Positions 1,349-16,365 are shown, counted from the first letter of the whole stretch. The stretch: DNA of 61,728 nucleotides, filler included, from Catajapyx aquilonaris (GCA_000934665.2; 3 parts of 3 records of this genome joined end to end with filler, not necessarily neighbours in it), one strand, 5' to 3'. The notes: generated from the sequence alone by a model not told the origin. Program-made: numbers and translations.

Positions 1349-3146
1349 CTATGGCCCATACGATGAATGCCAAGAAAAGAATTTCAGTGTTGGTAGCCAA
1401 ACCCTAACACTCCAATTTATATTTCCAGCTGTCTGTGAGTTACCAGACCAATGTGAGATACCGTGTCTCCCTAGTAAAGTAGTAATGGCGTGGACTGGCA
1501 AAGGCTCTGCTGGCGAGGAAGACCATGGGCACCTATCCTGTGGTTTCCAACTTTCTGATCGCGACTGTACATGCGTGGCTTTTTCACAAGGTTGTTCATT
1601 GTAAAAGTGCAATTTCGGCGTCACCATTTACAAGTCAATGAGATAACTCGCATCATATCTGTCCCACTCGTCATTCACCAACCACCCGTACGAGGTGTTG
1701 CCGTCCACTGCTGCTGCGGCTCTGTTGGGGCAGCAGTGGTTGGGGTGGCCTAAAAATGCATTCATAATGTTAGTGTGAACTTTAAATGCTGAAAAACATA
1801 TTATATTAGTTTCCTCAGTGTCACAACGATTATTCTTCTGCCTTCTTTCACCATTTCAGAATTGGGCGATAATCCACGGTAAATCTGATTCCAACCCCCC
1901 TTTTTTTGACACTAATACAACCGATGACATGGTCCCCGACTGATTCTTCCTCCATTTCCTCCCACTCAACAAATCAAGCCAGGGCAGACTACCAATGTCA
2001 TAATGTTATTTTACTTTAGTCACCCGCAACAAGGAGCCAACAAACTCCACGAGTTCTTTTATTCTTTTTATGTGTCATCCTGTGTGTGCCAAGGAGGTAC
2101 TCACCAGAATTGCCTCCGCTTCTGAGCCGCCGCTGCGGACCCGAAGGTCATTCGGACGACCGCAGCGACGACCCCTGCTTGGCGTGGCTGTGGATTAAAA
2201 ATATCGTCAGGATTAAGTGAGGAACAACCGCCACTGGAAAATATTTTGCATTAGTTTCCCCAGTGTCATCCATCTGACACTCAACCCCAAGAGTCACTCC
2301 TCCTTCTGACTTCTCAGCAGCTGTTATTTGTTTTGGTAATCACCTGCAATAGCTGCTGTTGTTGGTGGTGGTGCAGCTGCGCAGCATAATAGTGGGGGTG
2401 GGGCCCCCACCATAGACCCGGCGGCAGATTCAGAGGTATGAGCTGCTGCAGCCGCCGGGAACTCCTCGCCATCTTTCAATTCTAAGGGGGAAAGAAATAT
2501 TTCCATGAATGAGGCAAACCTTGCTCGCAGTTGTTGTTTCTGAAGAGGAACAACAAGTGAACTTGGGACCCATTGCACCGACCCATATATATGCATCAGT
2601 GTTATAAAAGTGAGGAAGATTTGAGATTTTATGAATACAAACATATATGCATGCTCATGGAATTGCTGTACCCTGTGACTAACATGATCACTGATCATCA
2701 TAGATCAATCAGAGATGGGTAGGCTATAAATCATTGGATATGGATTCCATTCAGTTCCACGAAGATCTTGGTAGGTTGCAGCTGATTCAATTATTCTATT
2801 CCATTCAACTTCAATTCGTTGCCAATACCACTGCACCATTCGCTTTCTGTTAATTTATTCGACTCTAATTCGTTCCTGTTCAAGTGCATTCAATTCACTT
2901 CTACCTTTAATTTCCCCTTCACTGCCCCATGTAGCAATATATCTTGGGGCAATATTGGCTAAATACTGGTGTATATATTGAGCAATATTGGTTTCAATAT
3001 TATAGTCGGATTACTCACTTATGGTGAGACTTCCGTGCCAAAACACTTTGTGCCAATGAGCAACTCACCTTGGAGGGACTCCTTCCAGGACAGGAGGTGG
3101 ACCCGGGGGCGGCAGCAGGGTTGGCAGCTGAGGCAGCAGGCCGACC
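1349..3146 (-). pseudogene. Copy C of the phase-0 exon-cassette gene (degenerate)
   Basis: AG/GT-bounded exons: 3146-3069 (78 nt, GRPAASAANPAAAPGSTSCPGRSPSK); 2481-2344 (138 nt, N*KMARSSRRLQQLIP...HHHQQQQLLQ); 2187-2105 (83 nt); 1749-~1653 (frameshifted ...TSYGWLVNDEWDRYD, donor reads GCGAGT); and a terminal-type exon from 1564 (SRSESWKPQ...). Confidence 0.5.
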
Positions 3147-3243
3147 CTATATCACATTAATAATGTCATTAGGATGAATAAATGCCACTGGAATCTACAT
3201 GGCAGCATTATTATTTGAGTAATATGAAACTGAGATATCTTAT

Positions 3244-13648: not shown

Positions 13649-16365
13649 TTAGCCTTGATGTTCCTGGGGTTTCCAACTTTCTGCTTGGGACTGTATACAT
13701 GGGTGGCTCTTTCACAAGGTTGTTTCACTTATTGCAAAAGTGCCATTTCGGAAGCACCATTTATTACAAGTCAATGAGATACTCACAGTATACTTATCAT
13801 ACTCGTCATCCACCAACCACCCAAAAGACGTGTTCGCGTCTACTGCTGCTGCGGCTCTGGCCGCAGCAGCAGGGGTGGTTGGGGATGACGATGGCCCTGG
13901 GGTTGATGGGGCGGCTGTTGGGGCGGCTGTTGGCGCGGCTGTTGGCGCGGCTGTTGGCGCGGCCTAAAAATGCATTCATAATGTTAGTATGAACTTTAGA
14001 AGCTGAAAAACATATCATATCAGTTTCCTCAGTGTCACAACGATTATTATTCTGCCTTCTTTCACCATTTCATAATTAGGCACAATGATTTATAATCAGT
14101 AGAACAACTTGGACAGATAGTGTCCAATGACTGCATGGGCCAAATGACCACATTAGGTAGTTTTTTAAAAAAAATTCTGGATACAGCACAGTTCATGCCT
14201 CAGGAGGTCATGTTCATTTGGAATATGTTCAAAGCCATCTCTCCCACGAGTAAGCAGCAGGTTCAAATTCTCCCTGGCTGATTAATTAACAAAACCTTTC
14301 ACTCCTGAACATTCAAGTTAGCTACTATTTCATGTGCAGAAACCCTCCTGGTGTTGCTGAAGTAATATTCACTTTCATCATCAGTGAACTGCACATGTAT
14401 AAAAAGGTGAATCATAATGCTGAGGCTGAAAATAACCCTTTGTGGTGTTAAGGTTAAGTAATACCATGTGCATACTTCCCAGAGTAATTAATTCACAAAC
14501 AGCACATATGTGATTTCAAATAAAATCCATCAAATTCTCATTGAATGAATATTCCACCACACAAGCTCACAAAGTTTCCTTCCAGAGTATAGCAAAAGTT
14601 AAAGTATAGCACGACAAGATACACACAAAAAGTAACAGCTTTGAGTGAAATTTCCAATAACTAAAAGGACCCATGTGACCTTGGAACATCTTGCATAAAA
14701 AAGGGCCTCTCAGTATAACAGATATGACATGGTCCCCGACTGATTCTCCCCTCTTTTCCTCCTACTCAACAAATCAAGCCAGGACAGACTGGCAATGTCA
14801 TAATGACATTTTACTTTAGTCACCTGCTACATGGGGCCAACAAACTCCACGAGTTCATTTATTATATTTAGTAAAGTTGGGTAAAGTAGACGCTCTTCCT
14901 GGGTACCGCAGTGACGGACCATTGGCCTACCTGTGGATTAAACCGCCACTGGAAAATATTTTGCATTAGTTTCCCCAGTGTCATCCATCTGACACTCAAC
15001 CCCAAGAGTCACTCCTCCTTCTCTGCCGTCAGATGTAAGAAGACCGTAACTCAAAAACTAGTAAGGGTGAAAGTCGCATAAATGCCCTGCACTAATCCTC
15101 TGTGAGTCAAGGGGGGATTAGTGCAAGGCATGCATGCGAATTTCACCCTTACTAGTTTTTGAGTTACGGTCTTCTTATACATCTGAAGGCAGTTCTGAGT
15201 TCTCAGCAGCTGTTACTTGTCTAGGTAATCACCTGCAGAGGCTGCGGCTGCCGCGGAGGTGGCTGCCGCGGAGGTGGCTGCCGCTGTTGCGGAGGTGGCC
15301 GCTGCTGCTGCTGCAGAGGCTGCTGCCGCTGCTGCGGAGGTGGCTGCCGCTGTTGCGGAGGTGGCCGCTGCTGCAGAGGCCGCTGCTGCTGCGGAGGCGG
15401 CTGCTGCTGAGGCTGCTGCTGCTGAGGCTGCTGCTGCTGAGGCTGCTGCTAGAGGAACAGATTTTTAAGAAAGGCTTCCTGCTAATTCATGTTCAAGTGA
15501 AGAGAGACAGAATTCATGATGATGAGTTTCAAGCAGCAAATTTTCCCACAAGTTGAGAAAAATTATTAATTCATTACGTCAACTACTCTCCATGTACAAC
15601 TGTGTTTTCAAACATCGCACATCTCAACCTTCACACTGAGAGTTTTTCCGGTAATTTGGATGCAATGGTCTGCATCTGCAAACATGATGATCACCTTATC
15701 TATAGGAGCCATTTGGATTCCACAGCCACATTTCTACATATTCATCGTTAAACACAGAGTTCGCTATACCATCATGACACGACAAATACTGCCCACATCA
15801 CTTCCACCACTATTTAGACACTTCCTAAAACACAATGGATTAGCAGAGCCTTACAGTATTATAAGGGTTGTAAGTAGAGAGGGGCACATTTCACTTGAAA
15901 CAGTGCAGTAAATATTTCAATTCACAATAAGTACTTGCAAGTTCCTTCAATTCCACTGCATTAGACTTCAATTTTCCTGTCATTAAATTGCGCAAAATGG
16001 ATGTTACATTCCTTTCTGTTTAGAGTTGAGTAGATCCTATCCAGTTGCTTCAGTATACCACTTTATGCAATTGAATAAGTGAGAAAAAGCATACGTCAAG
16101 ATTATTCCAGTATTTATTTAAGGGCATGTGTTAATGATAGTGTTATAGTTGTTCTACTTTCCACTGGCTGCTAGAGGAACAGATTTTTAAGAAAGGCTTC
16201 CTGCTAATTCATGTTCAAGTGAAGATAGACAGAATTCATAATGAGCGCTCATCAATGTTGGCTTACCATGGAGGAGGCTCCGGCCCCCCGGGCCAGGTCA
16301 GCCTTTCTGTCGCCCTCGTGGCGGCTGACCTGCATGACCACCCCCATGTCCTGGTCAAACTTCCT
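13649..16365 (-). CDS. Copy A of the phase-0 exon-cassette gene (Gln/Pro- and Ala/Pro/Thr-rich disordered protein); 5' end unresolved
   Basis: Exons: 16365-16267 (99 nt, RKFDQDMGVVMQVSRHEGDRKADLARGAGASSM); 15448-15233 (216 nt, QQPQQQQP...RQPQPLQ); 13963-13787 (177 nt, (AAPT)4...SFGWLVDDEYDKYT); 13690-13649 (SQAESWKPQEHQG*). All are phase 0 with canonical AG/GT. A damaged exon remnant starts at 14930. Confidence 0.6.
15023..15192. mobile_element. 170-bp palindromic MITE with 4-bp TSD (TTCT)
   Basis: Long TIRs ctgccgtcagatgta...gggtgaaa and tttcaccc...tacatctgaaggcag. TTCT flanks both ends (15019-15022, 15193-15196). The paralogous empty site near 2290-2325 has a single ttct. Confidence 0.9.

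Follow-up and report, generated by a model that had tools for sequence, protein, structure and literature searches.

The sequence analyzed here, hereafter the window, is a 61,728-nucleotide (nt) stretch of Catajapyx aquilonaris DNA (GCA_000934665.2). It is animal-type DNA (GC ~0.43) with spliced-looking genes and, outside the region of interest, intronless open reading frames (ORFs) of the Lig_chan, Srw-type G protein–coupled receptor (GPCR), and BTB kinds. Artificial linkers of the form N44-TTAATTAATTAA-N44 at 20421-20520 and 41234-41333 divide the window into three separate pieces, so that the adjacency of two genes across a linker does not establish them as neighbors. On the first piece (1-20420), the minus strand of positions 1-16365 carries a cluster of exon-like segments that probably make up a small unannotated gene repeated several times in tandem; its product would be a Q/P/A-rich, putatively disordered protein.

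Self-comparison and alignments resolved a gene unit with four exon types (classes alpha, beta, gamma, and delta), present in three fuller copies, designated A, B, and C, and in two fragments, D and E. To judge from these alignments, the tandem cluster arose by segmental duplication of one small multi-exon gene unit. Positions 1-207 are 98% identical to 6417-6623, and the duplicated unit reaches past the left edge of the window.

Exons of the cluster

Exons of class alpha (A2, B1, C2, and the remnant B5b) are Q/P/H-rich and have a common donor flank, GGTGATTACCTnGACAAGTAA. Class beta (B2, B3, C1, and C3) is characterized by a common acceptor flank, ATTCATCCTAAYGACATT, and by a donor flank, GTGAGTAnCTCCTTGACA (GGTGAGTAnCTCCTTGRCAnACACAGGAT). 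Class gamma (A3, B6, C4, and the truncated D1) encodes an AAPT/PT- and Ala-rich part followed by the tail VDxNTS(F/Y)GWLV(D/N)D..(Y/W)D(K/R)Y. Class delta is a short terminal exon encoding S(Q/R)(A/S)ESWKPQ.., which is followed by a stop codon in A4 and B7 and has lost it in C5. The ancestral unit, as reconstructed from these classes, is an alpha exon, one or more beta cassettes, a gamma exon, and a terminal delta exon. The segments are as follows:

A1: 16365-16267, minus strand; 99 nt; phase 0 reads RKFDQDMGVV..., with an ATG at codon 7 in a G..ATGG context
Duplicate of the A2 acceptor: 16167-16244, minus strand; 97% match to the intron end and acceptor preceding A2
A2: 15448-15233, minus strand; class alpha, 216 nt, Q/P-rich; all three frames open; donor flank GTGATTACC
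Decayed class-beta cassette of copy A: 14724-15022, minus strand; flanks match those of C3, exon body and donor gone
A3: 13963-13787, minus strand; class gamma, 177 nt; AAPT repeats, Ala-rich stretch, and conserved NTSFGWLVDDEYDKYT; only phase 0 open
A4: 13649-13690, minus strand; class delta, terminal; SQAESWKPQEHQG, then stop; identical to B7
E: 12197-12317, plus strand; inverted partial terminal exon of the C5 type (SRAESWKPHDMCPG...)
B1: 11372-11283, minus strand; class alpha, 90 nt; GTGATTACC donor flank; 81% identity with C2 in the upstream flank
B2: 11177-11097, minus strand; class-beta cassette, 81 nt
B3: 10935-10822, minus strand; class-beta cassette, 114 nt; HHHLPPPPPP..., ends RSKRAR
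B4: 8567-8441, minus strand; 127 nt; duplicated in tandem with B5; its inclusion would break the frame
B5: 8120-8001, minus strand; 120 nt, Ala-rich; holds the first in-frame ATG of the copy B model (MRVTAAAVAVAI...)
B5b: 7927-7953, minus strand; candidate 27-nt exon (QQPSRQQQQ); class-alpha exon-end remnant with GTGATTACC donor; uncertain, and outside the initial annotation
B6: 7251-7087, minus strand; class gamma, 165 nt; ...NTSFGWLVDDHDWYDKYT
B7: 6954-6995, minus strand; class delta, terminal; identical to A4
C1: 3146-3069, minus strand; 78 nt; class-beta acceptor flank; all frames open
C2: 2481-2344, minus strand; class alpha, 138 nt; phase 0 has a TGA and then an ATG (MARSSRRLQQ...HHHQQQQLLQ); only frame 2 fully open
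C3: 2187-2105, minus strand; class-beta cassette, 83 nt; frame-breaking
C4: 1749-1652, minus strand; class gamma, 98 nt; net 79-nt deletion relative to A3; motif in frame 2; GC donor
C5: 1533-1564, minus strand; start of terminal exon, SRSESWKPQD...; original stop lost, frame read as continuing
D1: 423-353, minus strand; class gamma, fourth copy; truncated by unrelated repeat DNA

A pyrimidine-rich tract ending in AG precedes each segment, and the donors read GTGAGT, GTGATT, GTGAGG, or GTAAGC (GC in C4). The exons are GC islands, at 0.59-0.74 in flanks of ~0.4, and 15 of the 27 GC islands of 1-21100 are exons of the family. A strict filter was defined as a pyrimidine tract plus YAG, 60 to 260 nt at GC ≥0.58, and then GTRAG or GTGAT. 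In 1-17000, it returned 28 acceptor-donor combinations at ~9 places on the minus strand and 3 at 2 places on the plus strand; the remaining 44.7 kilobases (kb) of the window gave none on the plus strand and eight on the minus strand. With looser thresholds beyond 17 kb, the candidates lay inside or antisense to other ORFs, and none were like the exons of the cluster.

Of the 13 exons, 10 have lengths divisible by three (binomial P = 0.0016 under independence), a value that overstates the true significance since the exons are related and their boundaries were picked by eye after the fact. Copies A and B have 10 internal exons, B5b counted, and 9 of them begin and end in phase 0, as judged in the frame that third-position substitutions support (see below); copying, loss, or resizing of one of them therefore keeps the frame. 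The 10 minus-strand segments named in the initial annotation, with their lengths and splice-like ends, are all present, and so are its three frame-breaking exons (B4, 127 nt; C3, 83 nt; and C4, 98 nt, at 1749). It had also described three copies sharing GWLV(D/N)D..(Y/W)D(K/R)Y and a SxxESWKPQ end, to which a truncated fourth copy and an inverted fifth terminal exon can now be added.

The most unusual feature of the locus is the contrast between kept intron flanks and unalignable exon bodies, which is unusually sharp. Alpha and beta exons are flanked, on one side or both, by 45 nt with a within-class identity of 0.73-0.82 (z of 4 to 6 compared to shuffles), and the downstream flanks of beta exons are alike for ~90 nt; the similarity of exon bodies within the same classes is at the shuffle level (z ~0). 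Homologous intron flanks around divergent exon content had been claimed before, together with modular phase-0 cassettes, and both descriptions fit what we see: exon-sized units were copied within and between gene copies, and their bodies diverged far more than their flanks. The alpha donor-flank motif has four occurrences, all on the minus strand within the cluster, compared to 0.01 expected by chance. For the beta acceptor and donor flanks, there are three matches (0.13 expected) and two matches (0.00 expected), respectively, and all three motifs are confined to the cluster and its minus strand.

Neutral point substitution cannot produce such a combination of conserved flanks and unalignable bodies. 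Because the cores of the bodies hold 3-, 12-, 15-, and 21-nt tandem repeats, and because a CAC-type run accounts for part of the difference between B2 and B3, the simplest cause of the divergence would be rapid in-frame slippage and turnover under constraint on frame and composition alone. Diversifying selection on the exon bodies is possible.

Individual copies have further features. A1, with a GC content of 0.67 compared to 0.38 in its flanks and no second copy within the window, is the probable first coding exon of copy A. The acceptor within the duplicate at 16167-16244, if used, would open 18 codons in phase 0 up to a TAA located beside an AATAAA at 16118. The decayed beta cassette of copy A matches the C3 flanks over 82 nt with complete identity and over 147 nt at 88%. 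The 82-nt stretch (2226-2307 in copy C and 14941-15022 in copy A) is 100% identical in surroundings that are only ~88% identical, and it may be a gene-conversion tract. B4 and B5 are 91.5% identical over 224 nt and differ in length by 9 nt and by 2 nt, the latter difference being the one that breaks B4. The introns upstream of D1 and B6 share 95% identity.

Just downstream of the copy A stop, 13289-13650 is duplicated in inverted orientation at 12569-12938 (84% identity). With ~350 base pairs (bp) between them, the two arms could pair into a large DNA or RNA hairpin. A 77-nt tandem repeat (2.9 copies) is located at 90-313 and is also found after copy B. As can be seen from the self-comparison and the ORF list, the region as a whole is rich in repeats and transposon-like ORFs.

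Reading frame and predicted products

The sequence gives what appears to be modest support for coding in phase 0. As claimed initially, 9 of the 10 symmetric segments are stop-free in this phase (4.57 expected from mononucleotide shuffles, P = 0.003; the exception is C2), but this is weak evidence, since 23 of their 30 frames are open and stop-freeness shows stop-poor sequence rather than which frame is read. The ORF track misses the gene, as had also been pointed out, the long ORFs of the region being antisense or off-frame.

More is learned from differences between paralogues. The alignment of copies A and B spans 1261 bp at 91% identity. The comparison of exon and intron indel lengths proposed in the initial annotation gave indels of 18 and 6 nt within the gamma exon, compared to 10 indels of 2, 2, 3, 2, 2, 2, 3, 2, 1, and 1 nt outside exons. 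Substitutions at first, second, and third codon positions of phase 0 number [6,2,7] for A3/B6, [3,5,12] for A3/C4, and [1,1,4] for B5/B4. When pooled, 23 of the 41 paralogue substitutions fall at third positions (binomial P = 0.002), while the upstream intron used as a control gives [14,18,9]. Four of the seven A3/C4 replacements keep the amino acid class (F>Y, D>N, Y>W, and K>R). In the C-terminal two-thirds of A3/B6, the five changed codons listed comprise four synonymous changes and one replacement. The identity of A4 and B7 was considered as a sign of constraint and rejected, since the noncoding DNA downstream is also 98% identical. Overall, in GC-rich low-complexity exons, ORFs are nearly worthless, and it is the indel lengths between paralogues and the codon positions substituted that carry signal.

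Gene models were built by joining exons by their coordinates, and statistics were then computed. Model A (A1-A2-A3-A4) runs uninterrupted for 177 codons to a terminal stop, and translation from the ATG at codon 7 gives a predicted 171–amino acid (aa) product rich in Q (23%), P (20%), and A (13%). Model B (B1-B2-B3-B5-B6-B7; 19% A and 17% P) is open for 203 codons, but its first ATG is at codon 115, within B5 (MRVTAAAVAVAI..), and B1 lacks an ATG in all frames. Unless an upstream exon supplies its start, copy B gives a short product at most or is dead. Phase 0 of model C is disrupted by the TGA that precedes the ATG in C2, by the 83-nt C3, and by the net 79-nt deletion and GC donor of C4.

Disorder of the product was judged from composition, and no Pfam domain was found among the exon translations. 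Model A has no predicted signal peptide, its start (MGVVMQVSRHEGDRK..) being without a hydrophobic core, and we therefore lean, loosely, toward a nonsecreted product. A scan of the minus strand of 1-21200 for an ATG followed by a hydrophobic stretch gave seven matches; within the cluster, only the ATG internal to B4/B5 has a suitable donor. An N-x-S sequon is kept in all three gamma copies, and glycosylation of the PT-rich part of the gamma exon is a possibility.

Searches for relatives and other features of the window

No relatives of the cluster were recovered. A word-indexed search of A3 against longer proteins gave one chance-level match (E = 9.4), and a similar protein search with A1 plus seven intron-encoded residues gave none. 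A profile of the three gamma exons had no matches at E ≤ 0.001 among 1.84 billion protein representatives, and no usable match was found in the ESM Atlas. None of 12 exon translations exceeded a Pfam cutoff; the best match was the PT repeat PF04886 (13.9 bits compared to 26.2, E = 0.041). In metagenome contigs, a peptide-pattern scan gave 79 pattern matches, none of which was confirmed, and the exact 22-nt pattern of the terminal exon had no matches. As a control, a 646-aa intronless Lig_chan ORF from the window was likewise without a match at E ≤ 1e-10. The collections evidently do not include the organism, and the blanks thus count little either way and are no sign of novelty. Rfam over 1-21100 gave only a weak tRNA-like match.

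This match belongs to a tRNA-like element at 3287-3358 (minus strand), located 140 nt upstream of C1, which ARAGORN calls Ser-GCT and Rfam scores at 32.6 bits (cutoff, 29); it may be the head of a tRNA-derived short interspersed element (SINE) instead of a functional tRNA gene. A 150-aa ORF without a Pfam match (822-1274, minus strand), located between copy C and the truncated copy D, is probably transposon-derived. At the other end of the piece, long ORFs at 19617-20420 (minus strand; ..FMPTFKVQGQIYNRIGSLLPSENEIPRFLQLYFVG..) are cut by the piece end. They resemble the N-terminal region of a Helitron-type transposon protein; a Pfam scan of 19617-20096 gave no match.

Beyond the first linker, 20713-20814 (minus strand) has the look of a clean first exon: it is preceded by a TATA-like box, codes for a signal peptide with dibasic sites (MSFRSCAVLLILVLAATVTLAAPEKREKRQTEGG), and ends at a phase-1 donor. 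The exon that follows, at ~20521-20543 (minus strand), has a good acceptor and is then cut off by the linker. The two are probably part of a small secreted-peptide gene on a different piece. The signal-peptide exon was considered as the 5′ end of copy A and rejected, since it lies across the linker on another piece and its phase-1 donor does not fit A1.

The remaining features are located on the plus strand of the other pieces. Long intronless ORFs at 25702-27741, 29389-31167, and 55778-57745 contain a Lig_chan domain only (two are below the Pfam cutoff) and look like divergent ionotropic-receptor–type genes; the ORF at 55778-57745 had no relative at E ≤ 1e-10 in the word-indexed protein search. 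ORFs of the Srw/rhodopsin GPCR type are arranged in tandem at 31494-32813, 37654-39184, and 39514-40824, the Pfam scan having been made on 38261-39184 and the others being alike by eye. A BTB-domain ORF is located among them (35896-36879).

Interpretation and comparison with known systems

We consider it probable (roughly 0.6) that the locus is a genuine gene cluster restricted to this lineage, encoding a disordered protein, built from symmetric exons, and with one intact member. At least copy A would then be a working gene. The conserved aromatic-acidic C-terminal tail would be the part under functional constraint, most likely as a short motif for binding or anchoring. The low-complexity exons would evolve fast through in-frame slippage and relaxed or diversifying selection, and we propose that the bodies are unalignable and the intron flanks alignable because of this fast evolution. 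Growth by copied symmetric exons is an already known way for genes to grow, and in this respect the locus is fairly ordinary.

Several observations weigh against this reading, in addition to the openness of most frames and the inflated significance of the length test noted above. The initial claim of a gene family stands insofar as the cluster appears to be a duplicated gene without recognizable relatives, but a complete ORF is found in only one of the three fuller copies (A); B lacks a start up to codon 115, the frame of C is disrupted, and D and E are fragmentary. There is no AATAAA or ATTAAA within ~890 nt after either of the stop codons of copies A and B. Without the A3/C4 pair, the third-position excess is only 11/21 (P = 0.056). 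The changed codons of A3/B6 comprise six synonymous and five replacement changes overall, and the divergence of these exons, 9.4%, is not lower than that of the adjoining intron (6.9%). Triplet slippage in CAG/CCG-like sequence could, without selection, keep lengths in threes. The blank homologue searches belong here too, with little weight given the coverage of the collections. Last, the gene status of the cluster and the transcript structures considered below are predictions from genomic sequence.

The best-surviving alternative, which we hold to be doubtful, is that the copies are dead relics, i.e., decaying duplicates of a once-coding gene, any working copy of which is elsewhere, and that no copy here yields protein. 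The missing start of B, the net 79-nt deletion, 83-nt exon, and GC donor of C, the truncation of D, the inversion of E, and the 2-nt deletion of B4 are all as expected of relics; so are the decayed beta cassette of copy A, an exon divergence between A and B that is not below that of the intron, and surroundings full of repeats and transposon-like ORFs. However, copy A holds a 171-codon ORF across four exons with intact splice-like sites, indels between the A and B exons keep the frame, and third positions are enriched for substitutions.

It is quite unlikely that A, B, and perhaps C form a single long transcription unit with alternative 3′ ends (A3-A4, B6-B7, and C4-C5), in which any phase-0 cassette could be joined or skipped, in line with the exon skipping that the initial annotation suggested. 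Such a unit would agree with the location of all cassettes on one strand and with the phase-0 ends of 9 of the 10 internal A and B exons (B5b counted). It would supply the upstream exon that B1 needs, having an acceptor but an ATG in no frame, and it would fit the uniqueness of A1 within the window. Yet every unit carries its own stop-bearing terminal exon, and the 2.3-kb spacer between A and B contains inverted copies of the 3′ end.

Far less probable still is a different reading frame, in which the cassettes are read in phase 1 to give a Cys/His/Pro/Thr-rich protein from an ATG located at the same place, 25 nt upstream, in B1 and in C2 (MVIFLSTLG.. and MEIFLSPLE..). Frame 2 is open in A2, B1, B2, B3, B5, and C1, it is the sole open frame of C2 and C4, and it leads from C2 to C4 and on to the conserved motif. 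In contrast, the gamma and B4/B5 exons have their substitutions preferentially at the third positions of phase 0, frame 2 of A3 and of B6 stops inside the conserved motif, before the exon end, and A1 is closed in it. A noncoding repeat with conserved arms, a hypervariable GC-rich microsatellite core, and accidental AG/GT ends would account for the arms, the unalignable cores, and their 3-, 12-, 15-, and 21-nt tandem repeats, but it is hardly credible given several distinct flank classes that end or begin exactly at consensus splice sites, the strand bias, lengths in threes, third-position bias, and a common stop-bearing terminal exon.

If the cluster of disordered-protein genes favored here is expressed, it would constitute an unannotated gene family of restricted taxonomic distribution, such as ORF-based and homology-based annotation alike miss, and would illustrate, in a compact natural setting, the growth and change of disordered proteins. 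Different stages, from birth to decay, are seen side by side: an intact copy, a startless copy, a frame-broken copy, and fragments. A bolder possibility, which we regard as a long shot, is that the locus acts as a diversity generator, in which frame-neutral bodies of rapid turnover are swapped on a fixed scaffold of splice flanks and exon skipping and copy turnover yield variable disordered proteins with a constant C-terminal anchor; the proposed anchor is the aromatic-acidic FGWLVDD..YDKYT-SQAESWKPQ.

For human genes, a class of mostly disordered proteins assembled from symmetric exons, often by internal tandem duplication, has been described (Schad, Kalmar and Tompa 2013, PMC3632108). Like this class, as described there, the cluster has phase-symmetric internal exons and a Q/P/A/T low-complexity composition. 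It also shows internal exon duplication (B4/B5 at 91.5%, and flanks common to B2/B3/C1/C3 and to A2/B1/B5b/C2). The description concerns human genes in general and no particular family, and thus the likeness implies no homology.

The initial annotation had likened the cluster to the micro-exon genes (MEGs) of schistosomes. MEGs are trematode genes with documented alternative splicing; micro-exons of 6 to 81 bp, mostly 15 bp, numbering 10 to 20 per gene, form most of their coding region, and their products retain an N-terminal signal peptide (PMC10526429). As in MEGs, exon lengths are mostly multiples of three (10/13 here), the genes are easily missed by automatic annotation, and the encoded proteins vary and show poor conservation. 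Variation through omission of exons is an idea applicable to both, for the cluster as a suggestion from its genomic sequence. Nevertheless, the analogy fails in its specifics: the exons of the cluster measure 78 to 216 nt, with 4 to 7 per gene, and only B2 (81 nt), C1 (78 nt), and the doubtful B5b (27 nt) fall in the MEG range; no signal peptide was found on the cluster's piece of DNA, and no sequence similarity to MEGs was seen.

The AAPT/TTP-rich first half of the gamma exon, with its N-x-S sequon in three copies, resembles mucin-like PT-rich linkers (Pfam PT, PF04886). It differs from members of that family in its match, which is far below the gathering cutoff, and in the signal peptide, which was not found. 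In the genes of snake-venom phospholipase A2 and cone-snail toxins, introns are better conserved than coding exons, and accelerated point substitution (dN > dS) is documented in these folded, secreted, cysteine-framed toxins. The cluster is similar in that intron sequence beside the exons of paralogues is clearly more alike than the exon bodies. Unlike in venom families, its divergence looks dominated by indels and slippage in low-complexity sequence, and secretion is not indicated. Were the diversity-generator possibility true, the locus would be a counterpart outside flatworms of schistosome MEGs or of venom-like accelerated exon evolution. Compared to ordinary duplicated exons, the cluster is in any case more extreme, its exon bodies being fully unalignable while their 45-nt flanks keep 73 to 82% identity.

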